NCBI GenBank assembly: GCA_018304465.1
Contig: JAGVWC010000010.1
Span: 192,001-256,000, forward strand
Source: Candidatus Iainarchaeum sp.
GTDB taxonomy: Archaea > Iainarchaeota > Iainarchaeia > Iainarchaeales > JAGVWC01
DNA length: 64,000 nucleotides
Direction: 5' to 3'
Numbering within the stretch: the stretch's first letter is position 1; each line of letters begins with the position of its first letter. Below the pieces are notes generated by a model, which searched no databases, was not told the origin of the DNA, and worked only from the letters and a program-made list of their open reading frames with translations. The position numbers were made by a program, and so were the translations under genes. This document shows positions 4,731 through 59,456 of this stretch, piece after piece.

Positions 4731-4860
4731 GCCCGAGTAGCTCAGACAGAATTCGGTTCTGAAATTGGTTCCGAGTCTGGGGCCACAGGTAGAGTGATCG
4801 GCTGTTACGACAATTGTCGTAGATACCGATTGGTCGAAGGTTCAAGTCCTTCCTCGGGCG
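4731..4860 (+). tRNA. tRNA-Asn(GTT) with two introns (4746-4785 in D-loop 15/16; 4808-4824 at 37/38)
   Basis: Removing both segments yields a standard cloverleaf: GCCCGAG/CTCGGGC acceptor, GCTC-AGCAGGTA-GAGT D arm, ATCGG-CTGTTAA-CCGAT anticodon arm. BHB-like junctions at both introns. Confidence 0.88.
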
Positions 4861-7287: not shown

Positions 7288-8337
7288 ATGAAACCACGGG
7301 TAAAAAAAGAAGCGGTTGCCTACGCAAAACGAATCGAAGAAAAATACGGAGTCACCACCAGCGTCATCGCCCAAACCAACCAAGGCCTTCCGTGGGTCAC
7401 CTCGGGTGACGGAATCACGATTTTTGTCATCGAACCCCGAAAAGACAATTTTAAAATCCTCAAACAACTCGCCGCTGATCTGGAAGTATCCTCCTTTGGC
7501 CAGCCGCGCCATTTGGTTCAGGGAATGCATCCCGTCTCCGAAATGGTTGCAATCACCCGCGAAAACCCCAGTCTCCTCCGAAGCGGCCTTGGCGCCGCCG
7601 GTTTTTTAGTCCCGTTCCTAACCCACACCGAAATATTCGGAAAGTACCAGGACGAATTCCGCCGCGCGTTCCAGACCGCCTTCGGACCCGCGCTTGTAAA
7701 CGAACTCCGCGAACGCAAAGAACGGTTAAAAAAATTCCAACAACAAAGGCTTCAACGCGTCAGAATGGCGAGGACGGCCGAACAAAAACAACTGCTGGAC
7801 CAATTTGAAGCACTCGCCCAACGCGTCCACGCCGAACAACCAACCGTATTAATCGCCCTGGACCGGTCCGGTCGACCCGTCGGAACAACGGTTCAACAAA
7901 TACTCAAAGAAGCCTACGGAGAACGCATTCCCCTGTTTTTCATCAATCCCGAAATGCTTCGGAATACAACGCTTCCAAAACAAACGCTTCGAAAACTTCT
8001 CGAAACCCAGCACCCGCACCTATGCCGACACCTTCCAGACGCCACAGTGATGATTCTCGACGATCAAATCGCCACCGGGAAAGCGGCAGGAGCCGTCGGA
8101 GAACTGCTCAACCAATTCCACCCCAAAAAAGTAAAAACAGAGGTCTTATCCGAGTATCCCAAAACCCATCCCCCCAGCTGGTGGTACCAAAAACCGTTTC
8201 TTATTCAAAGCGCGAAAGGTCGCCTGATCTCAAAACGCATCCGGGCAAATCAAAAACTCCGCCGAAAATCCGCGACTATCCGAAAAAAGTTCGGTAAAAT
8301 CGCACGCACCCTCACGATCCGTCTTCGGAAAAAATAA
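7288..8337 (+). CDS. Basic hypothetical protein with C-terminal phosphoribosyltransferase-like domain
   Basis: IALDRSGRP and VMILDDQIATGKA resemble type I PRTase motifs. Lys/Arg-rich termini. Confidence 0.65.
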   Translation: MKPRVKKEAVAYAKRIEEKYGVTTSVIAQTNQGLPWVTSGDGITIFVIEPRKDNFKILKQLAADLEVSSFGQPRHLVQGMHPVSEMVAITRENPSLLRSGLGAAGFLVPFLTHTEIFGKYQDEFRRAFQTAFGPALVNELRERKERLKKFQQQRLQRVRMARTAEQKQLLDQFEALAQRVHAEQPTVLIALDRSGRPVGTTVQQILKEAYGERIPLFFINPEMLRNTTLPKQTLRKLLETQHPHLCRHLPDATVMILDDQIATGKAAGAVGELLNQFHPKKVKTEVLSEYPKTHPPSWWYQKPFLIQSAKGRLISKRIRANQKLRRKSATIRKKFGKIARTLTIRLRKK

Positions 8338-8682
8338 TTACCGTTTTTGCGTCGCGTCTTCGCGCATCAGCCATTTCACGATCAAAAACACCACCAACGC
8401 GATGATTAAAAAATCGATCAAATTTCCCGCGAAGTCGCCGATGAGAAATTTCACGGGCCCGACCTGCAACACCGCCTGGCGCCACTCTCCGTTTGGGACC
8501 AACACACCCACAATCGGCATAACCACGTCGTTTACCAGCGCGGTCACGAGTTTGGTGGAGGCCGCACCGATAATAAACGCGACCGCAAGCCCGATGACCT
8601 GATATTTTTTCAAAAAGTCCAGAAACTCCCCCGAAAACCCTTTTCCGATGTTCGCCGCTGCCTTAATTTTCTCCACCTTCAA
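8338..8682 (-). CDS. mscL: Large-conductance mechanosensitive channel family protein
   Basis: EFLDFL...VIGLAVAFIIGAA.TKLVTALVNDVVMP...GDF...IDFLIIA. Confidence 0.9.
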   Translation of the reverse strand: MKVEKIKAAANIGKGFSGEFLDFLKKYQVIGLAVAFIIGAASTKLVTALVNDVVMPIVGVLVPNGEWRQAVLQVGPVKFLIGDFAGNLIDFLIIALVVFLIVKWLMREDATQKR

Positions 8683-8722
8683 AAAAAAGCCTCCTTGATC
8701 AACCCAAACGCCAAAAAATTTT

Positions 8723-9190
8723 TTAACACACCGCGTGCTTGTTTTTTTCCAAATACCGCTGATGGTATTCTTCCGCTTTCCAGAAATCGCCCGCGGGAAG
8801 GATTTCCGTCACGATGGGTTTTGAAAAACGACCCGACTTGTTCAATGCGGCTTTCGATTCCTTCGCAATTCTTTTTTGTTCCGGCGAAAAATAAAAAATA
8901 ACGGAGCGATACTGATGCCCCACGTCAGGACCTTGGCGGTTCAATTGCGTGGGGTCATGAAGCGCCCAAAACAAATCCAGGATCTTTTGAAACGAAACGC
9001 GTTTCGGATCGAATTCCACCAGCACCGTTTCGGCGTGACCCGTGGATCCGGAACACACGTCTTCATACGACGGGTTTTTTTTCCATCCACCCGCATACCC
9101 CGACGTCGCTTCAATCACGCCGTCCAAATTACGAAATGCGGCTTCTACACCCCAAAAACAACCCGCGCCCACCAACGCTTTTTCGGCCAT
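8723..9190 (-). CDS. msrA: Peptide-methionine (S)-S-oxide reductase
   Basis: GCFWGVE, TGHAE, HDPTQLNRQGPDVGHQYRS, AEEYHQRY. Confidence 0.97.
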   Translation of the reverse strand: MAEKALVGAGCFWGVEAAFRNLDGVIEATSGYAGGWKKNPSYEDVCSGSTGHAETVLVEFDPKRVSFQKILDLFWALHDPTQLNRQGPDVGHQYRSVIFYFSPEQKRIAKESKAALNKSGRFSKPIVTEILPAGDFWKAEEYHQRYLEKNKHAVC

Positions 9191-9233
9191 ACGAACAATA
9201 AGACGGAATATAACTTAATAATATACTGACGGT

Positions 9234-11807
9234 CTAGGCGCGATCTTTGGAATAATACCAATCCATCATTTCTTTTGACGCGTCTTCGTCGAGGTTTTCC
9301 GACCCAATGGCTTTTGCGGCCAAAAAACCGCGTTCAATCCGATCCGCGACCCATTTTTCATTTGACCGCACAAACGACCAATACTCGTCAAAATCCCGCA
9401 CAAACGAGTCGCCGGACAAAATCCGGCCTGTTGCGACATCCACCACGACGTGCTGGGCTTGACCGGATACCCACGCCGTAAACGAATCCTTCGAACGATC
9501 GTTTTTGTTTTGCACCAGAACGATTTCAACGTTTCGCACCGCCAGATTCCTTTTTTGTTCCATCTGGTTTTTGGACGCAAGTTCCGAAACCTTTTCGGAA
9601 ACTTTTCCGAACAAATCCGACGAAACAAAATCTTTTGCCGTGGACAAATTACGGGTTTCGATTCCCGTGTTCAAAAGCACAAATCCAAGGCGCGCCTGTT
9701 CGCGCATGAAATCCTCGTTCCACATCGCATCGGTTTGGCTTAAAAAATTCAGCAATCGATGCACTTTTCCCCCTTTGGATTTGATATCCGCGATTCCGAC
9801 GGCTTCAAACCCCGTTTGTTCGCGCGTTTCCGAAATCGAGACATCCATTTTTGCGGATTTTCCGGATTTTTCGTATATCCGTTTCAACATGTCCGGCGTC
9901 GCGTTTTCCACCACGTTTTCTTTTGAAACAAACGACGCGCCTTCTTCCGGCTGATCAATCGCGTTCAATAGCCACTGGTCCGACACCCGGATGAACGTCC
10001 AGAATTCCTCGAACCGGCCGATCCCCATATCCCCACGGATTTTTTTTCCGGTTCGATCGTCGACAATCGTATCGCGGCACTCGGCTTGCACCCACACCGT
10101 GAACTGGTCCGAAAAACGCTTGCCGGCATCACCCATTGAACTCTTCAGGCTTTTCACCCACACGATTTTTTGATCCAGCAACCGCAATTCTTCCAAACGG
10201 TTGATTTCATGCCGCACTTTCATGGCTTCCAACTGCGACACGTGCGAAACAAACAACGACTGCGACAACAACGGGCGCATTTCGGAATAATCGCGTTTTT
10301 CCCAGCATTCCTGAAGCTTCAAAAAAACCGTTTTCGAACGGTTAACCATTTCGGATTCGTTCCACACCGTCGAAACAGACGCCAGATACGAAAGCAACGC
10401 GGATACCTTCGCGGCCTTGGCATTGATCTTGGGTTTTGAAAGCGCGATCGTGGAGCTCCATTCGCCCAAAAAACCCGAAAACGCGTTTCGGTCGCCGGAC
10501 AAAAAACGAAAACCGCTTTTAACGATTGCCGAAAAAACCATGATGATCACGATGCCCCAGACTCCAAAGAAAAACACCAAAAAGAAACCCATCAACAACA
10601 ATTCGCCAAGCGACATGGGGCATTCGGGGATGCTGGCTTTGTTCGAAAACGCCGCGTCATTGGTGCAATAACACGAATCAACGATAATGTTCGGATTTTC
10701 GGAATCCGAAGAAACCACTTGTCCGCCGGAAATACAACTGCAAAACGGATACTCGGGCGTTGGAATCACCGACGAAGCCGTCAGAAAAGGAAGATACGAA
10801 CCGGATTTTTTTTCACAGCACGTCTTGTTTTGATCGGATTTTTTGCAGTCAAAATACGCCATATTGTCCGGTGGACCGCTAGAGCGGCTCGAACCGCCGG
10901 ACGACCCTCCGCCGCCACCCTTGTTGTGCACCGCAAAACCGTTCGCCAAAAACGTGTTCGGTTCGTTTACGCTCAAATTGTACGCGATGACGGACGCGGG
11001 AACAACATCGATTCGAGTCAGTCGCACGGGCAAAAGATCCCCGTTATCCGAAAACACGATCACTTCATCGCCCACCGCCAATGACTCGGCAACGCGATAT
11101 CCGGCCAACGTCCAGAACGGGTGTTCAGGAGTGACATCCACCCAAAAATCCCCCGCTTCCAAATGCAAAAAACGGTCGCGCACCACCCGATACACGTCCG
11201 TGACCGAGGAAGACACCAGAGAACCGTTTTCGTCAAACGAAACCACTTCATCACCGACTTTGATGTCCGCAATCGACTTCAAACCAAACGAAGTTTTCAC
11301 GGTTGTTTGACCCAAAAAACATCCGCCGCCACCGCCTTTGTTATGCACGACAAAGTGGTTCGCGACAAAAAGATGGTTTTGGGAAACCTCCAGATTAAAC
11401 GCCTTGACTTTTTTTTGATACTTTTCCACGGATTCGATTTTTTTTGAAACCAACCGATTGTTTTCAAGCATCATCACATTGTCGTCAGGAGAAAACGACC
11501 GGGCTTCGCGAAACAATCCGTTGGCGACCAAAAACGGATGCTCACCAGTCACGAGAACGGAACCCAGGCCGGTTTTAATCGAAAAAAAAGCGTCTCTTTC
11601 CACGGAAAAAACGTTTTGAACCTGCACCCATTGCGCACCGTTTTGATCGAAACCCAACACCGTGTCTCCGACCAAAAGGGATTCAATCGGAACGGGTCCT
11701 TGCGGCGTATCGATCCAAGTGCCTTCCAAAAAACACCCGCCACCGCCCCGCGAAAACGCGCTTGAAAAAAGCAGCAGGAAAAAAACCGCTGCAAAAAAAC
11801 GGCGCAT
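9234..11807 (-). CDS. Secreted/membrane protein: signal peptide, two tandem Hint (intein-like) domains, Cys-rich linker, TM segment, two Tim44-like domains
   Basis: GGGG|CF...TGEHPF...VHN|K and GGGGG|CF...TPEHPF...VHN|K. Tim44-like motifs LQECWEKRD...FEEFWTF and ...FDEYWSF. Confidence 0.85.
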   Translation of the reverse strand: MRRFFAAVFFLLLFSSAFSRGGGGCFLEGTWIDTPQGPVPIESLLVGDTVLGFDQNGAQWVQVQNVFSVERDAFFSIKTGLGSVLVTGEHPFLVANGLFREARSFSPDDNVMMLENNRLVSKKIESVEKYQKKVKAFNLEVSQNHLFVANHFVVHNKGGGGGCFLGQTTVKTSFGLKSIADIKVGDEVVSFDENGSLVSSSVTDVYRVVRDRFLHLEAGDFWVDVTPEHPFWTLAGYRVAESLAVGDEVIVFSDNGDLLPVRLTRIDVVPASVIAYNLSVNEPNTFLANGFAVHNKGGGGGSSGGSSRSSGPPDNMAYFDCKKSDQNKTCCEKKSGSYLPFLTASSVIPTPEYPFCSCISGGQVVSSDSENPNIIVDSCYCTNDAAFSNKASIPECPMSLGELLLMGFFLVFFFGVWGIVIIMVFSAIVKSGFRFLSGDRNAFSGFLGEWSSTIALSKPKINAKAAKVSALLSYLASVSTVWNESEMVNRSKTVFLKLQECWEKRDYSEMRPLLSQSLFVSHVSQLEAMKVRHEINRLEELRLLDQKIVWVKSLKSSMGDAGKRFSDQFTVWVQAECRDTIVDDRTGKKIRGDMGIGRFEEFWTFIRVSDQWLLNAIDQPEEGASFVSKENVVENATPDMLKRIYEKSGKSAKMDVSISETREQTGFEAVGIADIKSKGGKVHRLLNFLSQTDAMWNEDFMREQARLGFVLLNTGIETRNLSTAKDFVSSDLFGKVSEKVSELASKNQMEQKRNLAVRNVEIVLVQNKNDRSKDSFTAWVSGQAQHVVVDVATGRILSGDSFVRDFDEYWSFVRSNEKWVADRIERGFLAAKAIGSENLDEDASKEMMDWYYSKDRA

Positions 11808-11811
11808 GTTT

Positions 11812-12075
11812 TTACCAACCGTGAATACCCGAAATAATCGCCGCCGCGATGATCAGGGCAAAACCGATTAACACGCCTTGGACAATGGCACCGTAATAAT
11901 GCGCGACCGCCATGTTACCGCGCGCGATTTCTTTTTCCTCGTCTATTTTCGGGGAAAGCGCGTACAAAATCCGCGGTACCACGAGCACCGCAAGCAACAA
12001 CAACAAAAGCCCCAGCACGCCGCCAAGCAACGTGTAAACGACCGCACCGATCACGTCATCAATCAGAATTGGCAT
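11812..12075 (-). CDS. DUF350 family membrane protein
   Basis: Two TM helices flanking PKIDEEKEIARGNMAVA. Ends 4 nt before the Hint/Tim44 start. Confidence 0.8.
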   Translation of the reverse strand: MPILIDDVIGAVVYTLLGGVLGLLLLLLAVLVVPRILYALSPKIDEEKEIARGNMAVAHYYGAIVQGVLIGFALIIAAAIISGIHGW

Positions 12076-12152
12076 TCAAACCCCCCTTTTTTTGGGAAAA
12101 AATCCCGAAAGAAAATAGAACAAAACCACAATATAAAGATGGCGGTTACACT

Positions 12153-12572
12153 TCAGCCGGGTTTTGAGACAGGAATTTTTTTGCGAAAATCCAAAGAAAC
12201 CGAATTGATGCAAAACCGCTTTCCCGTGTCCGTGGGACCGTCGTCAAACAAATGCCCCAAATGCCCTCCGCAATTCCGGCACACGACTTCAATCCGATTC
12301 ATGCCCAGGCTTTTGTCTTCCTTTAACTCCACGTTTCCTTCGTTTGCGATCCGGTCAAAACTCGGCCAACCGCAATTCGAATCGAATTTGGCGTCCGACG
12401 AAAACAAATCCAGTCCGCACGCCGCGCACACGTACATCCCCGTTTCCTTGTTTTTGAGCCACTTGCCCGTGAACGGAATCTCCGTTCCTTTTTCGAACAA
12501 CACGCGAAACTGTTCCGCTGAAAGCGATTTAGAGACTTTTTGGGATCGAATCACACCAAAAATTCCAAACAT
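12153..12572 (-). CDS. msrB: Peptide-methionine (R)-S-oxide reductase
   Basis: GTEIPF, CAAC, GWPSF, CRNCGGHLGHLFDDGP, RFCINS. Confidence 0.96.
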   Translation of the reverse strand: MFGIFGVIRSQKVSKSLSAEQFRVLFEKGTEIPFTGKWLKNKETGMYVCAACGLDLFSSDAKFDSNCGWPSFDRIANEGNVELKEDKSLGMNRIEVVCRNCGGHLGHLFDDGPTDTGKRFCINSVSLDFRKKIPVSKPG

Positions 12573-12693: not shown

Positions 12694-13512
12694 ATGTCGT
12701 ATTCGAAACGCCCCGGCAACGGGAAAAAAAAACAGCCACCCATCATGACGCTAAGTCAAGACCAACTCTTTTCGCTGGGCGTGACATTTCTTGTGGTGCT
12801 CGTGTTCTTTGCCGGTTTGCTTTTGCCCAAAAACCACGCGACATTGGTTTTCAACGGAGAAGACACCCAGGTCACGATTTTCCATCAACCGGAATACAGC
12901 ACCCCCACCACAGGAGAACTCACGGTATCCGCGTGGATGCGCCCCGAAACGCTTGAATTTTCGAAAAGCGAAGGTAGCGGATATGTGTATTGGCTGGGCA
13001 AAGGCGAAAAAGACGATTTCGAATGGACGTTTCGCATGTACTCCCAATCAAACACCGAATTACGCGACAACCGAATATCGTTTTACGTGTTCAACAAATC
13101 CGGCGGACTAGGGGTTGGCGCGTATTTCCAGGAACCCGTCACTCCAAACGAATGGATCCACGTGGTGGCCACCGTGGACCGGTCCAACGTCAGCATTTAC
13201 AAAAACGGGCTTTGGAAAAACACCCAAGACCACACCCAAAACGTGGTCCTTGAAACGGGTGCAAGCCCGGTTCGAATCGGAACACGCAACGAACGCAGTT
13301 TTTTCAAAGGAAACATCAAAGACGTCGCGATATACAACCGAAAACTGCGAAGCGACGAAGTCATGCGATTGTTCCAGCAACCCGAAAACATTCCCCAGAA
13401 CGGCCTCGTCGGTTATTGGCGTTTAAACGAAGGCATCGGATTCATCGCCAACGATTCCGGATCACCCCAAAACAGCGGAACCATCACGAACCCCACCTGG
13501 ATCGAACCATAA
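12694..13512 (+). CDS. Membrane-anchored LamG/concanavalin-A-like domain protein
   Basis: N-terminal TM; TVSAWM, WIHVVAT, FKGNIKDVAIYNRKL, GLVGYWRLNEG. Confidence 0.85.
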   Translation: MSYSKRPGNGKKKQPPIMTLSQDQLFSLGVTFLVVLVFFAGLLLPKNHATLVFNGEDTQVTIFHQPEYSTPTTGELTVSAWMRPETLEFSKSEGSGYVYWLGKGEKDDFEWTFRMYSQSNTELRDNRISFYVFNKSGGLGVGAYFQEPVTPNEWIHVVATVDRSNVSIYKNGLWKNTQDHTQNVVLETGASPVRIGTRNERSFFKGNIKDVAIYNRKLRSDEVMRLFQQPENIPQNGLVGYWRLNEGIGFIANDSGSPQNSGTITNPTWIEP

Positions 13513-26781: not shown

Positions 26782-26908
26782 GGACCCGTAGCGAAGAGGA
26801 TATCGCAGCGCTCTCCTACAGCTTTTTGTCTTGGGACAAAAACCTGGGAAAAAAAATCCCGGAATTGGAGTCAGGCGCAGGTCGTGGGTTCAAATCCCAC
26901 CGGGTCCG
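26782..26908 (+). tRNA. tRNA-Arg(CCT) with 54-nt intron (26819-26872)
   Basis: GGACCCG/CGGGTCC acceptor; GCGCT-CTCCTA|A-GGCGC; CTCC/GGAG central BHB helix. Confidence 0.9.
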
Positions 26909-29419: not shown

Positions 29420-30844
29420 TCAGTAACCGAGTTTTCGAACTTCGCCTTTTTGACCGTCCACCAAAAGAACGTCCCCTTCTTTGATTCCGTCAATTCCTTT
29501 TACTTGCGTTACGCACGGAAGATCATATTCGCGCGCCACAATGGCCGCATGAGACAAGTTTCCGCCCGCGCCACTCACCACGCCTTTAACCTGGCTGTAC
29601 AGCATCACCAAGTCCGGAAACAACGCATCGCACACCACAATTCCGTCTTTTACGGGTTTTTTCAAATCTTTCGAAGAACGAATCCACACCGCGCGCCCTT
29701 GCACCTGCTTTTTTCCGCCTGCCGAAAGACCCGTCAAGGTAAACGACGATCCCGCATGATCCGAAAACGACGGCTCTTGGGGTTTTACGGGTTTTGTTTC
29801 CACGTGCCACGTCGAATCAAACCAAACCGGCGACGACACGTCAAACAGCGAAAACGATTGATACCGCCCTTTTCGGCTTTGAACCAATTTTTGCATCGAA
29901 GAAACATCACCGGAATCCAATTCTTCAAGCCGCAAGAAAAAAACGTCTTCGCCCAGACCCGTGGAAGCCCCCAACGCCAAAAACGCTTTTCGAACCACAT
30001 CCAGATACAATCCCGACACCAACTTGCATTCTTCGCGAAACCGAACCCGCGGATCCCGCGAAAAAACCAGTCCTTTCGGAGTTTTGCGCGACTCGGACAC
30101 GCGCGGAGACGTCAAATCATACGGATTCAGGGAAAAAAAACCAAACTGCTCAAAAAACGCTTTTCTGGGCAACTCTGTTCGAGCCGAACTTGCTTCCAGC
30201 CAATCCACCCAAACCGTCGCGTTTTGGGGCACCACCACGGGAATACGCAGCGAATACGCCAAAGACGCCAAAAACGAAAACCGCATCACGGAAACGGCAT
30301 TCGCCAACGCGATTTGACCGATTTCAAGCGGATTTTCCGCCACGGAATTTTTTTTCCAAAATTCAAACGCTTTTTCCCGCTCCGCCTCGAAATCCGGCAC
30401 GGATTCCGAAAACAAAAACGCCAGTTTCACCTGACTCATCGCCTGCGAAAAAAAATCACGCGGAAAAGACGCGATGCAAAGCAACGAAGCGGGATTTATC
30501 ACCCGTTTTGAAACCACGCGGCCGTTTTGCACGACCAATTCGCGATCCAAACCCGGAGAAATCAAAAAACGCGTCTCGAAATTCTTGACAAAAAACAGTC
30601 TTCCCGCGACAAACACGCCACATTGTCCTTTCGACGGCCGCACGCCAAAACCGGTTTCTTCCATCACGGACCAATACGGCCCATCAGTGGAAAACACGCG
30701 TTCGAAAAAAACCTCGCTTGCGGGATTTGAAAATGAAAGCAAATCCGAGTTCTCGTTTTTTTCCAACACGAACGTCGAAGACTTGAAAACCAAGTTACGA
30801 TTTTTCGCCCGGTTCAATTCCTCGGCCAAAAAATCCGGATTCAT
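29420..30844 (-). CDS. Protein with C-terminal PEP-utilising enzyme mobile (phospho-His) domain
   Basis: GGNLSHAAIVAREYDLPCV...LVDGQKGEV. No recognisable N-terminal ATP-grasp domain. Confidence 0.8.
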   Translation of the reverse strand: MNPDFLAEELNRAKNRNLVFKSSTFVLEKNENSDLLSFSNPASEVFFERVFSTDGPYWSVMEETGFGVRPSKGQCGVFVAGRLFFVKNFETRFLISPGLDRELVVQNGRVVSKRVINPASLLCIASFPRDFFSQAMSQVKLAFLFSESVPDFEAEREKAFEFWKKNSVAENPLEIGQIALANAVSVMRFSFLASLAYSLRIPVVVPQNATVWVDWLEASSARTELPRKAFFEQFGFFSLNPYDLTSPRVSESRKTPKGLVFSRDPRVRFREECKLVSGLYLDVVRKAFLALGASTGLGEDVFFLRLEELDSGDVSSMQKLVQSRKGRYQSFSLFDVSSPVWFDSTWHVETKPVKPQEPSFSDHAGSSFTLTGLSAGGKKQVQGRAVWIRSSKDLKKPVKDGIVVCDALFPDLVMLYSQVKGVVSGAGGNLSHAAIVAREYDLPCVTQVKGIDGIKEGDVLLVDGQKGEVRKLGY

Positions 30845-31683
30845 TAATTTCCCTCCGGATCGAACAGACGACAAGCGCCCGAAACAGTTACATCCGCAAG
30901 CGCGTTCGAATGGAGTTCAAACGGACAAAAAACCCGGACCGAAACATTGTTTTCAATGGCCACACACGAAAAAACCGCTTCGATTCGAATCGATTGGATA
31001 CCATCCGAAACAACGCAGCCTTTTTCATCCAACGGCTGCACCCAAATCGAAGAACGGCCGGTCACATCCGGCGACTCCGCCGCTTTTCGGACCTCCGAAT
31101 CCCCCCGGTTGGAAGGGCTTGGAGAACCCATCGAAGGCAAAATCGAATTCAATCCTTTGGAAGCGTCCGAATCGCTTTGACCCGGGGCATTCGAAGTCGA
31201 AACCGCCCGAAGTTCAATGGCTCCATACACGGAGACGCCCACCAGAAGTCCGATCACCAAGGACCGGAGGAAAAAAGAACCCAACCGCGAAAAACGCGCG
31301 TCTTCTTGCTGCACCCGCCAGCGCTTGTAATCCAACAGAAAAAACAACACAAAACTCGCCGCCACCACGATTCCGGCGGCAAACAAAATTTCCGTCCACA
31401 CAAGCGGCGAAACGAAAACCAATCCTACGACCGCGGCTGCGAGTCCCACGAAAAGCGTTTTTGCGCCATCCGCCGCAAAATCCAGCAAGGCGGAAACCCG
31501 GCGGTTAAACACGCGTTTTTGGGCGATTCCCTGCAACGCAAGCCACACGCCAAACCCCACCAGCAAATTCGCGGCAAAAGTCAACGCCGAAAAAGTCGCC
31601 ACGTAAATCAAAGGCGGAATAATCACCACGCCAAAAACCGACACCGCAAAAAAAAACAAAAAAAACAACAGCAACCGCTTCAT
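30844..31683 (-). CDS. Membrane protein
   Basis: Multiple TM segments plus polar C-terminal domain; translationally coupled on both sides. Confidence 0.7.
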   Translation of the reverse strand: MKRLLLFFLFFFAVSVFGVVIIPPLIYVATFSALTFAANLLVGFGVWLALQGIAQKRVFNRRVSALLDFAADGAKTLFVGLAAAVVGLVFVSPLVWTEILFAAGIVVAASFVLFFLLDYKRWRVQQEDARFSRLGSFFLRSLVIGLLVGVSVYGAIELRAVSTSNAPGQSDSDASKGLNSILPSMGSPSPSNRGDSEVRKAAESPDVTGRSSIWVQPLDEKGCVVSDGIQSIRIEAVFSCVAIENNVSVRVFCPFELHSNALADVTVSGACRLFDPEGN

Positions 31684-34233: not shown

Positions 34234-34395
34234 GCAGAGATGGCGGAACCTGGTTAACGCGCCAGCCTTGAGCGGCCTTTTCACAAAGGCCGGCGAAAAC
34301 GAAAACCGTTTTTCCCAGGTTTTTGGCATTGGCCAAAAAGCTGTAAGAAAGCTGGTGGGCGCAAGCCCGTGTGGGTTCAAATCCCACTCTCTGCG
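34234..34395 (+). tRNA. tRNA-Ser(TGA) with 77-nt intron (34273-34349)
   Basis: GCAGAGA/TCTCTGC acceptor; CCAGC-CTTGAG|A-GCTGG; long variable arm GGGCGCAAGCCC; CTTG/TAAG BHB helix. Confidence 0.9.
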
Positions 34396-47571: not shown

Positions 47572-48333
47572 TCAATTCTTTTTTCCCGTCAACACGAAAA
47601 ACGCGCCGCGCTTTTCTAAAAACCATTTGATCTGCATCCACGACAAATGATTTTCAAGCGCCGGACGACTGTGGGTTACAACCAAGCGCTCTTCCGAAAA
47701 CCAGTGCAACACTTCTTCGACCAAATGATACGATTCATAAGGCTGGCCAAACTTGTCCGCCAAATACACCTCGCCTTTTGGAGGAACCCGTCCTCCGTAA
47801 AACAATTTTTTCGCGGTTTCCATTCGTTTTTTCACATCGGATCCGGCCAGCAATCCCACTAACCAACGCTTCCAACGCAGACGAAGACGACCCACGGCAT
47901 TATACAATCCGACGCAAACGAAACCACCGGCTTTGACATGCGAGACCGCGACTCCAAACCCTTTCCGCGGATTCTTCGTATGATGCAACACCCCAAGCGA
48001 CAACACGACATCGAATTTTTCTTTCGGATCAAACAAAAACAAATCGCCTTGCACAAACGAAACCGAATCCAACCCATATTTTTTCTTCAAACCCAACCCT
48101 TTTTCAATCGACGAAAACGACAAATCAACCGCAATAACCCGCGCGCCAAACAACCCCAATCCCGCCGCGACTTCACCGGTTCCACACCCAAGCTCCAACA
48201 CCGTTTTACCCAAAAACCAATCCCGCGGTTTTCCCATGGCATTGGCCGCCCACAACCCAAAGCCCTCCAAATCCGATTTGGATTGAACCACACGCGACGG
48301 ATACGGAAACCACTCATACATCATCGACGACAT
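47572..48333 (-). CDS. Class I SAM-dependent methyltransferase
   Basis: YEWFPYP, VLELGCGTG, FDVVLSLGVLHH, GGFVCVGLY. Confidence 0.88.
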   Translation of the reverse strand: MSSMMYEWFPYPSRVVQSKSDLEGFGLWAANAMGKPRDWFLGKTVLELGCGTGEVAAGLGLFGARVIAVDLSFSSIEKGLGLKKKYGLDSVSFVQGDLFLFDPKEKFDVVLSLGVLHHTKNPRKGFGVAVSHVKAGGFVCVGLYNAVGRLRLRWKRWLVGLLAGSDVKKRMETAKKLFYGGRVPPKGEVYLADKFGQPYESYHLVEEVLHWFSEERLVVTHSRPALENHLSWMQIKWFLEKRGAFFVLTGKKN

Positions 48334-48622
48334 CTGAATTAAGAATAAAGCCAAATGCTTAATACATTCGGTTGTAGAGCTTCTCCAAGCCGTAGAAGAA
48401 GCCTAAGACGACGATGTGTCCAAACTGACGTCAAATGCCGTCCAGAGCAGACATAACAACTCTTTTTGGAGTTGTAGCAAAAAAAAGCACAATTTTATGG
48501 AATTAATCGGCAATTAACGATATTTTTTATTTTCCGCCCCACGATTATTATGTTAAAAAAGATATTAATCAAAAAAGATATACTTATTAATATTTTCATA
48601 CATAATAAAATAGAGGAGCGAA

Positions 48623-49912
48623 ATGTCAGAATCAAAGAACATTTGGAACGGATATGGCTTGCGCGGAAATCCGTTCAATCCAGATCCCCTGCAAGTGTAC
48701 GGCGGAGCGCTCCCGATCGAAGAATCATTCATTGGACGCGAAGAAGAGTTTAAACAGATCACCAAGCACATTCATTCAAACAATACCTCGCGAATCCTCA
48801 TTTACGGAAACATAGGCATTGGGAAAACCACCTTCGCCAATTACGTTCGCTTCGAATCACAAAACGATTATTTCACCCCGCTTGGCGAACTCGGAGTCCA
48901 GTACGATTGGACACCCCAAGACTTCATGTTCAATACTGTACAATATGTCTACTCAACCATCGAACGGAACGAAAGCATCAGGGAAAAATTCAACCCAGAT
49001 ATCCTTCAAGAGCTAAAAGTCCTGTTTGGATCCGAGCGCGGAATTCAAACTGGGATCGGAGCAAACGCATTTGGATTCGGAATCACATCCACCAAAGGAA
49101 AACAATTTGCCCCACAACCCACCAACCCACATGCACTCAAACTGCTTTTCCAAGAAGTATTGGATGAAATCCAACATATAGGATACAAAGGAACCATTAT
49201 TCACTATAATAACCTAGAACTCATCCAAGACAAAGGCGAGAATCAACTCATCAGCATCATGAATGGCATACGCGACTTCTTGCAAGTCGAAGGCGCTCAC
49301 TTCCTGTTCGTGAGTGAAACCAGTTTCTTCGAACTTTTTCACCAGATACCGCGGATAGAAGGAATCTTCAAAACTCCCATCCTGTTGACGGCATTCACAC
49401 CCCAAGAGATTAAAAAGATACTTGAAAAACGTGTCAGTCTTCTTCGGATAAGCTCCGACATTACCCCCATTAACCCCGTAGACGACGAAACGCTCGAGAT
49501 TTTGTACGACTTATATGAAGGAAATCTCCGAGGAATACTTCGAAGCCTCGACTGCGCAATCAACAACATCGAAAGCGCTACCCCCACACAAATCAACCCG
49601 ATGATTCTCAAATACACGCTTTATCATTTCTCAAACAATCGTTTCGTAACCAACCTAAATGCCACTGAAAAAAAAGTATTGAACAAAATACTCGAAAAAA
49701 AAGAAACTACCAACAAAAACCTCTGTGAGGCCTTTGGGATGCTCCCTCAAAATGTCGCGCCCATATTGACGAACCTTCGCGATATTGGTGCCATCCGTCT
49801 CGCACGGACCGAAGCCCAAAAACGGTTCTATTCCCCAAGTCAAGAAGCCCTCTGGCTCAAACTTAATCCCACACTGAACACGCCACTCAATCCATTTTTC
49901 AAAAAGAAGTAG
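48623..49912 (+). CDS. P-loop/AAA-type ATPase with C-terminal winged helix
   Basis: GLRGNPF, FIGREEE, GNIGIGKTT, GNLRGIL, C-terminal wHTH. Confidence 0.85.
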   Translation: MSESKNIWNGYGLRGNPFNPDPLQVYGGALPIEESFIGREEEFKQITKHIHSNNTSRILIYGNIGIGKTTFANYVRFESQNDYFTPLGELGVQYDWTPQDFMFNTVQYVYSTIERNESIREKFNPDILQELKVLFGSERGIQTGIGANAFGFGITSTKGKQFAPQPTNPHALKLLFQEVLDEIQHIGYKGTIIHYNNLELIQDKGENQLISIMNGIRDFLQVEGAHFLFVSETSFFELFHQIPRIEGIFKTPILLTAFTPQEIKKILEKRVSLLRISSDITPINPVDDETLEILYDLYEGNLRGILRSLDCAINNIESATPTQINPMILKYTLYHFSNNRFVTNLNATEKKVLNKILEKKETTNKNLCEAFGMLPQNVAPILTNLRDIGAIRLARTEAQKRFYSPSQEALWLKLNPTLNTPLNPFFKKK

Positions 49913-50022
49913 CCGCCATTTTCCCAAAAGAATAAAAATCAACTTTTTGGTTGAACAAAAATCAACCGCACATATATTACTTCGCGGCGCGGCAATATGT
50001 ATAACGGATAGGCCTATCCAAC

Positions 50023-50358
50023 GTGAAAAAACCCTTTCTTCTCTCGAAGAAAGTACATTCAGGAGGAATAGCCATCCGACTCAACGAACTCGCAGCACTC
50101 AAAATCATGCACCAAAAAATCGCACCAAATACCTTTTCCATGGAACACTACAGCAAAGTATTCAACGTGCTCACCTTAGGCGACTGCACCATCCACGAAA
50201 TCAGCCAATTCGCCGAACTCAACGAAAAAACCGTCGAATACCTCATCCAAAACCTGGCGCAAAACCACATCGTCAACCGAAACGACCACATCGTACACCT
50301 GAATTGTTCTCCCCAATGGTTGCTTTCGCAACTCCAAAAAAACGGAGGACACCGATGA
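50023..50358 (+). CDS. Small wHTH protein
   Basis: TIHEISQFAELNEKTVEYLIQNL...IV. Confidence 0.6.
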   Translation: MKKPFLLSKKVHSGGIAIRLNELAALKIMHQKIAPNTFSMEHYSKVFNVLTLGDCTIHEISQFAELNEKTVEYLIQNLAQNHIVNRNDHIVHLNCSPQWLLSQLQKNGGHR

Positions 50359-50645
50359 AACCATCGGAAAACACCTGGAACCTCTGCACGTACTGCCACA
50401 AACTCGAACTGGGAAACGAAACCCGCTTCAAACAAAAACACGCCCCCTGCAAAATAGATCCCAACCCCACGCTTGCCAACCGGTTTCTAACACTCAAACA
50501 CTACATCGAAGAACAACTCGAACTACAACCCGGACAAATCGAAATCAACCGCACGAAAAACCACATCAAAATGAGTTTTTTATTTGAAAATCCACCAAAA
50601 AAACAAACCGCCCCTTCGGCAGTTGACGAAAAAAACATCCGATAA
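50355..50645 (+). CDS. Small Cys/His-containing hypothetical protein
   Basis: ATGA-coupled to the previous gene, GGAGG SD; CTYCH...HAPC. Confidence 0.6.
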   Translation: MKPSENTWNLCTYCHKLELGNETRFKQKHAPCKIDPNPTLANRFLTLKHYIEEQLELQPGQIEINRTKNHIKMSFLFENPPKKQTAPSAVDEKNIR

Positions 50646-50673
50646 ACCACGCGTATTCCCCCAAAGAATACAT

Positions 50674-52512
50674 ATGAAAAATGCGCTCGAATGGACTCTG
50701 ATCATCGGACTAATCGCAGTAAGCGGAACCATTCTGTTATTTCCATCCGCTAATTCCGAAGCAACGATTTCACCCACCCTGTTTCAACTGAACACTACCA
50801 CCGATCAAAACACCCTAACCACACTGGACACTTTCGGCACCAATATACGATTTGACATGTTGGTGACCGACCAATTTTTTTCGCCACTGTCCGGAGTACT
50901 CATTGGAATCATTCCCAGCTACAACCCCACCAAAATCGGATCCGTAATATCTACTCCCCAAGGAAACGCATCCTACACCGACACCCATGTTCCGCCCGGA
51001 GTTCACAAATACCGTTTGATTGGATCCAAAGTCGGATATCAGAACGGCTACATGGAAAAAAACATAGTGATTCCATCAGGACATCTAGTGAATGTAGAAG
51101 TTTTTGATTCAGCGGGGAATCCAGTTCCGGATGCTTTTTTAGTGGTGAATGGAGAAGAAAAAAAGCGAACCAATCCAAATGGAAAAGTTAACTTGAATTT
51201 TTTTTCGGGAACGTATGTGTTGCAAGCAAAAACAAATAACGGATATATCTGTGAATCCAAAACAATCACAATTACAACCCCACAATCCGTCCGGTTCTCT
51301 TGTCCGGTGGGAAACCTGGTTGTTCGAGTGTTTTCCCCCGATTACGCTCCAATCGCAAATGCATATATTCAACTTGATCAACAACCATCCCAACTCACCA
51401 ATGCCAGCGGAGCCCATTTTTTTAAAAACCAAGCATTTGGAAACCACCTCGTCACTATTTTTTTAAAAATCAAAGAAACTCCCGAAACCCAACCCAAAGA
51501 ATTTTTTACCCAAACAACAGTAAACCTTTCAGAGGATCTTGTGCTAAAAGAATTCCAACTCGCCCCCAATTCAATTCAAGTTTTGGATACTTCAACCGAA
51601 ATGTTGGTTCTATCCGTTGATTCGAATCAATCAAAAAGACTACCCAACGACATCTCCACTGAAAATGCAATAGTCATCAAAGGAAAAATGAACATCAACC
51701 AATCCCAAGAAACCCCCATAACAGATCCTCTGCACTCCGACACCTGCTACAAAAAGTATCTATTAACCGGAGAATGGCCCACCACTGAATGCTCCGCTAC
51801 CAACACAATTTGGATCGGAACCGATTCGATAACTCAAACCATCAACACAAACCCCTTCGCCTACACCTGCGGAGACCAAAAATGCAGTCAAAATTTGGGA
51901 GTTATTCTTACACAGTATATTGTTCCTCCACTAAAAGAATTTTTTACTGGTACAGATGGAGGAAGGTATTTTCGCATTTCCTATACTGAAAAAGGAAAGG
52001 GTCAAGATCTTGAAGCCTGTTTAAACAAATTGGGAATAGCGAAAGACGAAATTATTCAGCACATCAACAACAAGATTCTTATCCCCCATACCCCGATAGA
52101 GAAATACAATCAGCATATTGGGCAATATAGAGAGAATGGGTTAGATTGCAGTGTCTTCTATGAATCGGTTGCATTTAAAGAAAGCGGCGGTACAAAAGGT
52201 TGTGAAAAAAGTTGCGAACCGCCAGAAAAGTATATCCGAAATCCCCCAATAAGTTATCCGTCTTTTATTCCAACAGAGCATTTAGACGATTGGGTTGAAA
52301 GAATAATTAGACATAACAACGTCGAAAATGGGTGGCCTACATTAGATAGGTTTAAACCTTTTTCAGACATTGGAATAATTATCGTGGAAGGAGCAGGGGT
52401 AGCTGCGGGAGCACTAATACTATGGGAAGCTACAAAACCTGTTCGATGCTTACTTGCCGCTTTTTTAGCTCCTGAAACAATTGGAGGAAGTGTAGTATTA
52501 TGCGTAAGTTGA
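50674..52512 (+). CDS. Secreted protein with carboxypeptidase-regulatory-like beta domains and a variable C-terminal (toxin-like) region
   Basis: Signal peptide; repeated V.V.D..G.P...A.......T...G units; C-terminal GAGVAAGAL...APETIGGS. Confidence 0.7.
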   Translation: MKNALEWTLIIGLIAVSGTILLFPSANSEATISPTLFQLNTTTDQNTLTTLDTFGTNIRFDMLVTDQFFSPLSGVLIGIIPSYNPTKIGSVISTPQGNASYTDTHVPPGVHKYRLIGSKVGYQNGYMEKNIVIPSGHLVNVEVFDSAGNPVPDAFLVVNGEEKKRTNPNGKVNLNFFSGTYVLQAKTNNGYICESKTITITTPQSVRFSCPVGNLVVRVFSPDYAPIANAYIQLDQQPSQLTNASGAHFFKNQAFGNHLVTIFLKIKETPETQPKEFFTQTTVNLSEDLVLKEFQLAPNSIQVLDTSTEMLVLSVDSNQSKRLPNDISTENAIVIKGKMNINQSQETPITDPLHSDTCYKKYLLTGEWPTTECSATNTIWIGTDSITQTINTNPFAYTCGDQKCSQNLGVILTQYIVPPLKEFFTGTDGGRYFRISYTEKGKGQDLEACLNKLGIAKDEIIQHINNKILIPHTPIEKYNQHIGQYRENGLDCSVFYESVAFKESGGTKGCEKSCEPPEKYIRNPPISYPSFIPTEHLDDWVERIIRHNNVENGWPTLDRFKPFSDIGIIIVEGAGVAAGALILWEATKPVRCLLAAFLAPETIGGSVVLCVS

Positions 52513-52517
52513 CAAAC

Positions 52518-53042
52518 ATGGAAAAAAAGTTCGATGTCAGCTTAGTTCTGGCTAACACTAAAAATGCCAATAACCTAAAACTTCTGTATGAAATATTGTG
52601 TTTCTGTAAAGAAATCGGTGCAGTAACCCTTGAAATAGAGTTTGTGAACCCAGATATCTTTACGGGAAAAGATTTTGTTAATCCAGTTTTTTTCGATCGC
52701 CTAAAGGTGTGCGTTAGCCTGCCAGGAGAACGGGTTCGATACGAAAAACCAAAAAGAAAAGAGGAAATAGGCCATGAAAAATTGCATTATCTTAAAGCTA
52801 ATTTTGACTCTCTTTTTATTGAGTGGTATAAAGAAAATAGCCTAATGACTTTTAACGTATTTAATTTGCAATTATTTGACAAAAACGGATCCGTTGTTGC
52901 AGACTTTACCGACGATCAGCTTAGTATTCACATATATTCTTTGAGTAAACAAGAGTTAGAAAAAGTAAGAAAAATTGCGAAAAAATATTCCGTAGATAGT
53001 ACTACTGACACGGCTAAAACCTTAATAAAAAAATGGCACTAG
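52518..53042 (+). CDS. Hypothetical protein (immunity-like)
   Basis: AT-rich ORF starting 5 nt after the secreted gene. Confidence 0.6.
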   Translation: MEKKFDVSLVLANTKNANNLKLLYEILCFCKEIGAVTLEIEFVNPDIFTGKDFVNPVFFDRLKVCVSLPGERVRYEKPKRKEEIGHEKLHYLKANFDSLFIEWYKENSLMTFNVFNLQLFDKNGSVVADFTDDQLSIHIYSLSKQELEKVRKIAKKYSVDSTTDTAKTLIKKWH

Positions 53043-53069
53043 GGACTTCGCCCATATGACCCTAAGTAA

Positions 53070-53750
53070 GCGTGTGTTCCACCAAACCCGAATGCTCCAA
53101 ATGCGTATCCGTATAATGCATTTCATCGCAATTACCACAAGCATAATAAGGCTGACATTGGGGATCACAAGATGCAAAAAGGGATCGAATACGAATATTT
53201 TGCCGACGAAAATGAAGGCAGCATACGGTTTTTGTTTCAGGGCACAGGCAGACTTGACGCACTTGAAGTCGTGAAACGTATCGTAGGAAAAAAAAGTGCA
53301 GAAATTCCCGCAAACCAATACCTCGGAAAAGAATTCATATATGAAGGACAACGACTGGTGCTGTCGTTTGCAAAAAACGGTGTGAACATAAACATCAAAA
53401 GAGTTGGTGGCCAAGTATTTGGTGAAATGGATGGCCTCCTGCTAAAAGACAATACCGTCGTAATACTAGAATCAAAAACAGGCACCGTGGCCAAAATAGT
53501 GGAAGACTTGAGCACGCAGCTACCAAGAAACATTAATGCCATCAACAACCTTTCTCAAAAAACAACAACAGAAGCGCTTATCGCGATCCCAAAAGGCACA
53601 ACCGAAGAAATAAAAGCGCTTGCAATAAACAATTCCAATCTCAACGCGCTCATCAACCAAGGAAAAATACATTTCATTGAAATAACGCAGACAAGCGATG
53701 AACTGCTTGCAACTGCGAATACGGTAAAAGACCTTATAGGTGGCGGGTAG
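53070..53750 (+). CDS. PD-(D/E)XK nuclease-like cassette (first ATG 53172; frame open from 53070)
   Basis: GEMDGLLLKDNTVVILESKTG...TQL matches the E-x-D...E-x-K pattern. Confidence 0.65.
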   Translation, partial: ACVPPNPNAPNAYPYNAFHRNYHKHNKADIGDHKMQKGIEYEYFADENEGSIRFLFQGTGRLDALEVVKRIVGKKSAEIPANQYLGKEFIYEGQRLVLSFAKNGVNINIKRVGGQVFGEMDGLLLKDNTVVILESKTGTVAKIVEDLSTQLPRNINAINNLSQKTTTEALIAIPKGTTEEIKALAINNSNLNALINQGKIHFIEITQTSDELLATANTVKDLIGGG

Positions 53751-54455
53751 ATGAAGGACGATACGATTAGAGAAGAATACCTAAAACTAAATAAAGACCA
53801 TGAATCGTTAAAAGAGCAAAAAAGGCCCGGAAATGCGCATTTGGGGGGATTTTATGTACGATTAGATCCGAATCGAGGAACCTCTTTATCTGGCTCAGTA
53901 AGCGAGTTCGGTGTTTGCGATTTTAGTTATGAGGAAAGAAAATTTTTTTCAGAAGAAGATCGGCAAAAAAAAGTATCCAAATTAATTGAAACCTTCGGAT
54001 ACGCAATCAGTCTTATTTTTCTGAGTTTTGGAGAGAGTGATATCGTTATTTGGCTACAACTCCCACTTGGCAGAAAAGAAATCCAAGAAATCCTGGATTT
54101 TCTACCTTCGACAGGGACATTCAAAAAATACGAAACCCCAATCATACACACCTTGGCAAATGACGAGCAAGTACAAAAAGCACGCAACGATTTTTATCAA
54201 AAACTTTCTGAATGTGTCGACGGCCAGCAGACCGAACATTGGCGTTTTTCGAAAGACATCGAACAAGAAAAAAAAACCGCGTTTCAAATAACCATAAACG
54301 AAGTAAAAAACATTCAAATAGGCAAAACAACAGGACACAACATTACGCTGGAATTTATGAAAAACTGCTCTACTTTTAAAAAATACATTTTCCCCCTTGA
54401 AGAAAAAAGTTTCAAAAAAACAATTGAAAGGATTCGAAATGCGCAGGTAAAATAA
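53751..54455 (+). CDS. Hypothetical protein (immunity-like)
   Basis: Starts immediately after the nuclease stop codon. Confidence 0.6.
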   Translation: MKDDTIREEYLKLNKDHESLKEQKRPGNAHLGGFYVRLDPNRGTSLSGSVSEFGVCDFSYEERKFFSEEDRQKKVSKLIETFGYAISLIFLSFGESDIVIWLQLPLGRKEIQEILDFLPSTGTFKKYETPIIHTLANDEQVQKARNDFYQKLSECVDGQQTEHWRFSKDIEQEKKTAFQITINEVKNIQIGKTTGHNITLEFMKNCSTFKKYIFPLEEKSFKKTIERIRNAQVK

Positions 54456-54534
54456 CGGGTAAATTCATCAGGATACACAAAATATAAAATTTGAGTATTT
54501 AGAGATAAAAACCGCAACTAGTGGAGGGGGATAC

Positions 54535-54798: not shown

Positions 54799-54833
54799 AA
54801 TAATAGTTAACCTCAAAGTATGAGGGCCTTGGA

Positions 54834-56790: not shown

Positions 56791-56804
56791 TGTAGGATAG
56801 TTAT

Positions 56805-59454: not shown

Positions 59455-59456
59455 GT

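Follow-up and report, generated by a model that had tools for sequence, protein, structure and literature searches.

Chained Hint domains with invariant glycine and lysine junctions in a Tim44-like membrane protein of archaea and bacteria

What would a row of self-processing domains do for a membrane protein that both bacteria and archaea carry? Hint domains are known as mobile inteins, as the processing domains of Hedgehog proteins, and as bacterial intein-like (BIL) domains scattered in variable secreted proteins. We analysed a window of 64,000 nucleotides from Candidatus Iainarchaeum sp. (contig JAGVWC010000010.1, positions 192,001 to 256,000, assembly GCA_018304465.1). Here, two Hint domains stand in tandem ahead of two Tim44-like domains in one protein of 857 amino acids, whose open reading frame (ORF) lies at 9234..11807 on the minus strand. 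A second ORF of 87 amino acids (11812..12075, minus strand) encodes a DUF350 protein. It ends 4 nucleotides before the start of the main gene, on the same strand. An earlier note on this DNA had read the main protein as a signal peptide followed by RGGGG|Cys25..HN156|KGGGGG|Cys163..HN295, and the translation of 9234..11807 bears out this layout.

The first N-extein, R20-GGGG24, corresponds to 11736..11750 in the translation; all the features of the pair are on the minus strand. Hint 1 (residues 25-156, 11340..11735) contains Cys25, T87xxH90, and H155-N156. It is recognised by Pfam, NCBIfam, our own hidden Markov model (HMM), and the structural model. The linker K157-GGGGG162 (11322..11339) provides both the +1 residue of Hint 1 (K157) and the -1 residue of Hint 2 (G162). 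Hint 2 (residues 163-295, 10923..11321) has Cys163, T226xxH229, and H294-N295, and it is supported by Pfam, the HMM, a match to the BIL structure 2lwy_A, and the model. The translated C-extein tail K296-GGGGGSSGGSSRSS310 comes next (10878..10922). From K296 onward, the protein reads K296-GGGGGSSGGSSRSS. The two Hints have 132 and 133 amino acids, so they hold no endonuclease. At the DNA level, just the 22-nucleotide junction is repeated, at 10898, 11312, and 11726, with an exact spacing of 414 nucleotides. This points to an old duplication of the Hints. Pfam assigns both Tim44 (3.6e-23) and PT-HINT (2.3e-17) to the main protein, each in 2 stretches. PT-HINT (PF07591) reaches 64 bits against a cut-off of 27.7, and Hint_2, Intein_splicing, and Hint also exceed their cut-offs. 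In NCBIfam, the N-terminal and C-terminal intein splicing regions are both recognised.

A word-indexed protein search returned 897 clusters at E <= 0.001, with 7997 candidates scored. Pfam finds Hint as well as Tim44 in each of the 120 matches listed from these clusters. When 1.84 billion representatives were scanned in full, the number of matches was 7997 at E <= 0.001, 893 at 1e-10, and 123 at 1e-30. The Hint HMM was built on the window protein and the 120 listed matches, that is, 121 proteins with 435 units. Lysine occupies the +1 position in 435/435 of these units, and the penultimate histidine and the terminal asparagine are likewise present in 435/435. Glycine occupies the -1 position in 431/431 units with a residue there, and the glycine at +2 is also invariant. 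Cys1 is conserved in 429/435 (2 units have serine and 4 show alignment gaps). The threonine and the histidine of block B are each found in 433/435. Linkers between Hints consist of one lysine and then 1-9 glycines in 314/314 cases (KGGG 126, KG 107, KGG 51, KGGGGG 22). The tails of the family begin with K-GG and continue in a stretch rich in serine, glycine, and arginine. The recurrence of this junction in 435/435 units of 121 proteins is far beyond chance.

The junction was also counted in other samples. A genome scan with one genome per species confirmed 123 loci, of which 80 were kept and 77 have Hint units. Their 214 units, some of them cut by contig ends, show the -1 glycine in 205/205, Cys1 in 204/205, His-Asn in 206/206, and the +1 lysine in 206/206. 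A further 133 representatives divide into 65 with Hint and Tim44, 24 with Tim44 only, and 44 with Hint only (many of them fragments). In the 65 more divergent Tim44-bearing representatives, the +1 residue is lysine in 140/140 and the -1 residue is glycine in 122/127. Four proteins (P0344, P0345, P0347, and P0348) have a FARGG|C junction after the signal peptide, followed by two Hints, KGGGG.., a cysteine pair, a transmembrane helix, and a divergent single Tim44-like domain. This last domain has a FTEYW motif and is missed by Pfam.

The number of Hints per protein varies. Among the 121 proteins, 82 have 4 copies, 26 have 3, 7 have 2, 4 have 1, and single proteins have 5 and 6. The earlier note had suggested a survey of homologues for zero, one, or two copies at the same site. 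The Hint at the R-GGGG site does recur, with a range of 1-6 copies and with two at its low end. Unit length is 128-149 amino acids (median 132), so none of the units holds an endonuclease. A signal-peptide-like leader is present in 111/113 N-terminally complete members, and it mostly ends in [WF][AG]-R-GGGG. Among 210 proteins, the first N-extein is RGGGG in 140, RAGGG in 9, RGGG in 3, RG in 3, and RGG in 1; 33 are without any, and 21 are without a Met start.

The 77 Hint-bearing loci are 72 bacterial and 5 archaeal. They include Verrucomicrobiota, Thermodesulfobacteriota, Pseudomonadota (among them four Legionella), Planctomycetota, Micrarchaeota, Myxococcota, Lentisphaerota, Chloroflexota, Acidobacteriota, and Kiritimatiellota. 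The best named relatives of the window protein are Micrarchaeota. Likewise, in a tree of the Tim44 region, it joins the Micrarchaeota loci L001 and L004 with a Shimodaira-Hasegawa-like approximate likelihood ratio of 100, from a quick search in which long branches were flagged. Some database names of family members read "polymorphic toxin-type HINT domain-containing protein". The family is absent from the plasmid collection, where 6 records have single PT-HINT matches in polymorphic toxins only. At several loci, L060, L043, L053, L064, L065, and L074 among them, the main gene is split in two ORFs by frameshifts or assembly breaks.

The structure supports the assignment of the repeats. From an alignment of 121 Hint pairs, AlphaFold2 gave for residues 20-303 an all-beta model, with a mean predicted local distance difference test score (pLDDT) of 91.4 and a predicted template modelling score (pTM) of 0.76. 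Hint 1 in it has a pLDDT of about 90 or more. Foldseek against the PDB ranked two BIL domains at the top, Tetrahymena BIL2 (6Y75/6TMM, E 3.4e-9, TM-score 0.78) and the C. thermocellum BIL 2LWY (TM-score 0.85). The mini-intein 4O1R (0.87) and Hedgehog 1AT0 (0.79) came next. By sequence profile, 2lwy was best (6.6e-21) and 6tmm, which is BIL2, was second (1.5e-15). A single-sequence search matched 2lwy_A over Hint 2 (3.4e-10). Sequence and structure searches thus match characterised BIL domains best. The repeats are Hints of the A-type BIL kind, as the earlier note had proposed, with Cys1, TxxH, His-Asn, no Cys/Ser/Thr at +1, and no endonuclease.

Which known system is the closest? The window Hints share with the A-type BIL 2LWY the residues Cys1, TxxH, and His-Asn, the lack of Cys/Ser/Thr at +1, a length of about 135 amino acids, the lack of an endonuclease, and an extracytoplasmic host. 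However, the window family has a fixed site after R-GGGG, a host conserved in Bacteria and Archaea, abutting arrays of 1-6 units, and an invariant -1 glycine and +1 lysine. A-type BILs are defined by Cys1, His-Asn, and the absence of a +1 nucleophile (PMC7765530, PMC4031507, PMC7664689). BILs are placed in hypervariable regions of non-conserved secreted bacterial proteins (PMC7765530), and the window site does not fit this feature. Tetrahymena thermophila BIL2, from the BUBL (BIL-ubiquitin-like) locus, has an N-extein ending R-G-G before Cys1, where the window protein has R-GGGG|C. This RGG is conserved before the BIL of the locus (PMC9200820). Nevertheless, BIL2 is a cytoplasmic domain of a eukaryote, with folded ubiquitin-like domains as exteins. 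In the window protein, the N-extein is only R-GGGG and probably outside the cell, lysine directly follows the asparagine, and several units are chained. Pfam finds no ubiquitin-like domain in it, and its N-extein has five residues.

The other Hint systems are more distant in their context. The pretoxin HINT (PF07591) is the best-scoring Hint-family Pfam model for the window protein. In contrast to the PT-HINTs of polymorphic toxins, this protein has neither a toxin domain (its C-terminus is Tim44x2) nor an immunity gene. In place of G|C..HN|K, two ordinary plasmid PT-HINTs show A|C..HN|A and N|C..HN|T at their junctions. Class 1 mini-inteins (NpuDnaB 4O1R, gp41-1 6QAZ) and the Hog domain 1AT0 have the same fold (TM-score 0.79-0.87). 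The first chemical step is common to inteins and Hedgehog, and asparagine cyclisation is common to inteins; Hedgehog also cleaves at G|CF. Unlike class 1 inteins, the window Hints have lysine and no Cys/Ser/Thr at +1, so no canonical branched ester would form. They are not in the conserved site of an essential enzyme, and they show no sign of mobility. Compared with Hog, they are without the sterol-recognition region and have His-Asn, which Hedgehog is not known to have.

The rest of the protein places the array in the cell. The signal-peptide-like leader (residues 1-19, 11751..11807, by translation) has MRR, a hydrophobic core, and AFS, and it is probably cleaved after S19. A Cys-rich module (residues 311-399, 10611..10877) has 7 cysteines plus C396. 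A transmembrane helix follows at about residues 403-436 (10500..10601), according to the hydrophobicity and to a helix at 403-436 in the model, and then K430/R434. Tim44-like domain 1 covers residues 483-619 (9951..10361) and domain 2 covers residues 698-815 (9363..9716), from PF04280 and the model. Taken singly, the halves score 46.8 and 47.9 bits against the PF04280 cut-off of 29.6. They are 27% identical to each other (E 4e-26). The Cys-rich stretch, the transmembrane helix, and the two Tim44-like domains named in the earlier note were thus recovered from the translation, Pfam, and the hydrophobicity. With the N-terminus exported and a single transmembrane helix followed by K/R, the main protein would be a type-I membrane protein, with the Tim44 domains in the cytoplasm and the Hint array, the tail, and the Cys-rich module outside the cell. 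The description as a "secreted" Tim44x2 protein is therefore misleading, because the protein is membrane-anchored.

The full-length model has a mean pLDDT of 77.7. It is confident in both Hints and both Tim44-like modules, and weak in the Cys-rich module and the linkers. The Tim44-like modules consist of helices and a curved sheet, with a pLDDT mostly of 90 or more. No solved Tim44 structure was matched by single sequence or by profile, and the 50 listed Foldseek matches of the full-length model are all Hint folds. The NCBIfam Tim44/TimA adaptor subfamily (Tim44_TimA_adap, NF033779) scored 38.6 bits, below its cut-off of 80. The Cys-rich module lies between the tail and the transmembrane helix in the Micrarchaeota clade only. 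It has 7-8 cysteines, with the pattern PPPNVFYYDC..QCC..YPYCxC..CxC..CP in 10/11 archaeal-clade proteins examined (including some among P0004-P0025). It has no Pfam match and no usable look-alike in the ESM Atlas, and its pLDDT in the model is < 50.

Relatives without Hints show a similar leader. In 65/69 full-length single-Tim44 relatives of about 320 amino acids, AFA|R[VIA]GGSRSSGSRGS follows the signal peptide (the 69 are the sequences of >=300 amino acids among 101 examined). Two proteins have Tim44x2 and no Hint, P0373 (..CFA|RGGSYDGGGGSG..) and P0352, both with a ..A|RGG.. leader. Tim44x2 matches of < 471 amino acids were rejected as Hint-less forms; they are mostly N-terminal truncations or split genes. 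Close relatives nearly always keep at least one Hint, and the Hint-less forms are rare and distant. A family sequence with its Hints removed reads, for example, RGGGG.KG.KGGG.KGGG.KGGSSSSRSSSGG. Such tails have a median of 35 amino acids, with 49% Gly, 27% Ser, 11% Lys, and 7% Arg. By composition, they are Gly/Ser/basic, like the tail of the Hint-less proteins.

Lysine is not evenly distributed in these tails. In 95 short-tailed proteins, the +1 residue is lysine in 358/358 units, and the other 2482 tail residues include 8 Lys and 124 Arg. The tails of the Hint-less relatives (2720 residues) have 4 Lys and 327 Arg. Overall, these tails rely on arginine, and lysine appears only with a Hint, nearly always at +1. 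A mere need for positive charge at +1 would admit arginine. Lysine is specifically required.

On balance, we lean towards serial self-excision, in which Gly(-1) would be rejoined to Lys(+1) as the Hints leave one by one. The N-terminus would be exported, probably with removal of the signal peptide, and each Hint would then act once, on itself. Cys1 would convert the Gly(-1)-Cys1 peptide bond to a thioester. Cyclisation of the terminal asparagine would break its bond to Lys(+1), whose alpha- or epsilon-amine would accept the Gly acyl group and thus carry the new bond. The rejoined tail would be R-GGGG-K-GGGGG-K-GGGGGSS.., a short basic Gly/Ser tail as in the Hint-less relatives. In the upkeep of the membrane or in envelope stress, the mature protein might then act with DUF350 and, in many bacteria, with LemA. 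A route of asparagine cyclisation followed by amine attack on the thioester has been described for A-type BILs (PMC4031507).

Several observations favour this reading. At either end, every unit has its catalytic residues intact. In fold and in nearest relatives, the Hints agree with A-type BILs, which according to reviews can splice. The units are also integral to the host protein, as their same-position identity and their co-divergence with the host (given below) show. The Hint-less relatives show the joined form, with a collinear leader. Furthermore, lysine is found almost only at +1 in otherwise Arg-based tails. The earlier note had listed three possible outcomes of the processing, and the regeneration of a contiguous Gly-rich leader is the one with the best comparative support, from the collinear leaders of the Hint-less relatives.

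A more specific version concerns the amine. The epsilon-amine of Lys(+1) might itself be the splice nucleophile, with asparagine cyclisation then freeing the Hint. The array would thus undergo serial isopeptide splicing outside the cell, without ATP. We regard this version as tentative. For BIL2, which is the solved structure closest to the window Hints, a K(epsilon-NH2) isopeptide is reported, as is activation by Zn (PMC8616854). With this precedent, and with indirect support from the near-restriction of lysine to +1, lysine isopeptide chemistry, likewise raised in the earlier note, is conceivable here.

Cleavage without ligation is another explanation of the array, and we consider it unlikely. 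The Hints would be a self-removing pro-region or a source of free Hints, the thioesters would be hydrolysed, and RGGGG and the K-Gly linkers would be lost. Asparagine cyclisation at the last unit would free a membrane protein starting with K-GG-Ser... The last C-extein, K-GG-SSS-R-SSS, indeed resembles on its own the mature N-terminus R-x-GG-S-R-SS of the Hint-less relatives. BILs also give mainly N- and C-terminal cleavage products (PMC7765530, PMC4031507, PMC7664689). However, if only the release of the membrane protein mattered, the inner Cys1 and the upstream asparagine could decay, and neither does; this favours excision with joining. Cys1 and the -1 glycine are kept in all units, and the arginine of the N-extein is kept in all complete leaders, which is unexpected if the N-side is waste. 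An invariant arginine in a five-residue N-extein would be pointless if it were discarded, and this favours ligation. Moreover, the strict choice of lysine over arginine at +1 has no obvious reason in pure asparagine cyclisation.

The Gly thioesters could also be passed to other molecules, such as the amines of neighbouring copies, envelope proteins, lipid head groups, or wall peptides. We find this intermolecular conjugation quite improbable. It would parallel BIL2, which is reported to conjugate its RGG-ending N-extein, with a ubiquitin-like domain, to lysines of other proteins without ATP (PMC8616854, PMC9200820), and the N-exteins here end R-GGGG or K-Gly(n). In secreted RTX proteins, self-processing is linked to lysine isopeptide cross-linking (PMC7078468). 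On the other hand, the ubiquitin-like tagging of other proteins, another outcome named in the earlier note, is without direct support here, because the sole cargo of the first Hint is the five-residue RGGGG, with no ubiquitin-like or other folded N-extein. Since the N-side piece would be transferred and the membrane protein left behind, such conjugation would not imply that the cell is anchored or adheres. The invariant terminal asparagine and the +1 lysine of the same chain point instead to an intramolecular acceptor.

Could the Hints be selfish insertions like mini-inteins, with no benefit for the host, and kept since a non-excising unit cripples the protein? The conservation of catalytic residues alone would also be expected of a parasitic intein. 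The copy number is labile, with at least 11 changes among 48 proteins on the host tree, and units 1 and 3 of L004 are 73% identical, which is a recent internal duplication. Nevertheless, the units hold no endonuclease and behave as part of the host protein. Across the 82 proteins with four Hints, identity between proteins is 0.54-0.64 for units that share a position. For units that differ in position, it is 0.31-0.43 from protein to protein and 0.32-0.45 inside a single one. The units are therefore old positional orthologues. Their conservation is about that of the C-terminal region of the host (0.53-0.63 versus 0.61; in 691 divergent pairs, 0.36-0.43 versus 0.41). The more two hosts diverge, the more their units do (r 0.91-0.96), and nothing suggests mobility of the intein kind. 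As positional orthologues, constrained as the host and co-diverging with it, the units are integral to the protein. In addition, a low-complexity Gly tail would tolerate imprecise deletion, yet close relatives nearly always keep at least one Hint. We therefore give the selfish explanation very little weight.

Other features of the trees and arrays are as follows. The phylum labels cluster on the host tree, with 10 changes versus 22.9 when shuffled. The bacterial three-Hint proteins mostly keep positions 1, 2, 4 (25) or 1, 2, 3 (5), and the two-Hint proteins keep positions 1, 2 (17). The window units pair with the L001 units (0.45 and 0.47).

Tandem Hints are not limited to Tim44-like hosts. 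Ten Hint-only proteins are clearly other hosts. Among them, a laminin-G protein of 4119 amino acids has five abutting Hints, a protein of 1757 amino acids has five, and a subtilase-PKD protein has four. Tandem Hints also occur in a Big_9/cadherin-like protein and in a pilin-like protein. Related VHN|K arrays are present in the surface proteins P0334, P0359, P0349, P0343, P0374, P0298, P0322, and P0375, and some of their linkers are a single lysine. In the 36 units of the ten other hosts, the +1 residue is Lys in 26, Arg in 4, Ala in 2, Thr in 2, Glu in 1, and Gly in 1, and the -1 residue is Ser in 14, Gly in 11, and Cys in 6. Only the Tim44-like hosts follow the Gly/Lys rule strictly. Among CC-licensed PMC papers and bioRxiv, we found no paper joining Tim44 with Hint or tandem Hint, and none on tandem PT-HINT or BIL arrays. 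Tandem Hint arrays are apparently a wider phenomenon, undescribed as far as this search went. Their presence in large surface proteins with laminin G, PKD, Big_9, and cadherin-like domains would suit Hints that stay in place as a non-catalytic, beads-on-a-string extracytoplasmic spacer or binding module, but such modules would not need the catalytic residues that are invariant in the 435- and 214-unit sets, and we hardly credit this explanation.

Some points weigh against serial self-excision with rejoining. In BILs, cleavage products dominate over spliced ones (PMC7765530, PMC4031507, PMC7664689), and A-type BILs are said to be unable to ligate (PMC7765530). The arrays of other hosts tolerate a +1 residue other than lysine and often have Ser or Cys at -1, so the fold persists without the Gly/Lys pair. 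With at least 11 changes of copy number, no fixed number of Hints is needed. The proposal also leaves unexplained what makes the cell retain any Hint. Both the topology and the cleavage of the signal peptide are predicted from sequence only, and the link with envelope stress comes from the neighbours DUF350 and LemA.

The DUF350 partner is a constant companion of the main gene. In the window, this YjfL-type membrane protein with two transmembrane helices matches PF03994 (4e-8, 33.8 bits against a cut-off of 26). The window proteins thus pass both the Tim44-like (PF04280) and the DUF350/YjfL Pfam cut-offs, although the DUF350 here has half the length of the Pfam model. It covers only model positions 71-133 of 133, which is one of two repeats. 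The L027 copy matches positions 5-66. Across the family, the partner is a conserved protein with two transmembrane helices and the loop TPxIDEEKEIARGNxAVAxYxG. Immediately before the main gene, and on its strand, 69/72 loci with >=350 nucleotides upstream have a DUF350-like ORF, the window included. The coupling that the earlier note had pointed out is therefore genuine and nearly universal. Among the three misses, L028 looks like an over-called start; six loci without upstream sequence are outside this count. The gap between DUF350 and the main gene has a median of 31 nucleotides (range -20 to 255, 66 loci). In one protein of 157 amino acids, P0367, the N-terminal half of a DUF350-like protein is fused directly to the end of a Tim44-like domain; it may be a deletion or an assembly chimera.

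LemA (Pfam 8.9e-61) occurs at 35/80 loci, mostly just upstream of DUF350. In 29/30 clustered cases, it is upstream and on the same strand as DUF350, which gives the order LemA-DUF350-Hint/Tim44. Examples are L009 (5949-6506), from loci L008-L079, and L001 (3214-3765, minus strand). LemA is absent from the window, and PspA is absent nearby. DUF350/YjfL proteins are reported in PspA-linked envelope-stress operons (PMC11237479). In the literature searched, papers on DUF350, LemA, Tim44-like proteins, and bacterial Tim44 homologues gave background only. With PADLOC, neither the main protein nor DUF350 nor LemA had a match, which gives no indication of a defence system.

In the window, the pair lies in a same-strand run (8338-12572, minus strand) of msrB (12153-12572), DUF350, Hint-Tim44, msrA (8723-9190), and mscL (8338-8682). 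A redox operon was considered and dropped, as it is only in the window that MsrA, MsrB, and MscL adjoin the pair, and their genes are not conserved beside it at other loci. Two genes flank the cluster on the opposite strand. They encode a phosphoribosyltransferase-domain protein with a weak StiP-like match (7288-8337, plus strand) and a membrane-anchored Laminin_G_3 (concanavalin-like) protein (12694-13512, plus strand). At L027, an upstream pair of 89 and 850 amino acids was rejected as a second module; it is actually DUF5661 and a P-type ATPase. Scans for sigma-70 promoters and terminators were at background (5 versus 4.0 expected and 17 versus 11.1), and such scans are inapplicable to an archaeon.

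Elsewhere in the window, Rfam gives five tRNA matches, and three of them span 127-162 nucleotides (26782-26908, plus strand; 34234-34395, plus strand; 4731-4860, plus strand). ARAGORN calls only two short tRNAs, and the three long matches are probably intron-bearing archaeal tRNAs. On the plus strand, GC skew is negative in 30/32 and AT skew is positive in 30/32 of the two-kb windows. The GC content falls from about 0.47-0.52 to 0.36-0.45 past about 48 kb (48000-64000). Two ORFs overlap on opposite strands (29420-30874, minus strand, 484 amino acids; 29450-30511, plus strand, 353 amino acids), and at most one is likely to be a gene.

The Hints described here are old, inherited vertically, and under strong constraint, and they stand in rows of up to six in a conserved membrane protein, whose family occurs in Archaea and in at least ten named phyla of Bacteria. 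Protein splicing that serves its host can thereby be tested directly in prokaryotes. From the strict Gly(-1)/Lys(+1) pair, in contrast with the Arg-only tails, comes a sharp chemical hypothesis, namely splicing directed by an amine and perhaps leading to an isopeptide. If the epsilon route were true, the side chains of lysine would form part of the tail backbone, R-GGGG-(eps)K-Gly(n)-(eps)K-.., and each Hint excised would leave one more free alpha-amine. BIL2 would then have a prokaryotic counterpart, extracytoplasmic and multi-step, in effect a ubiquitin tail (R-G-G) without ubiquitin. Lysine would then join Cys, Ser, and Thr as a natural +1 splice residue. The short natural junctions (G|C..HN|KG, with linkers down to Lys-Gly) and the serial excision may interest protein engineers. 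Finally, the array offers a first handle on a widespread DUF350-Tim44-like membrane module, which is often linked to LemA.

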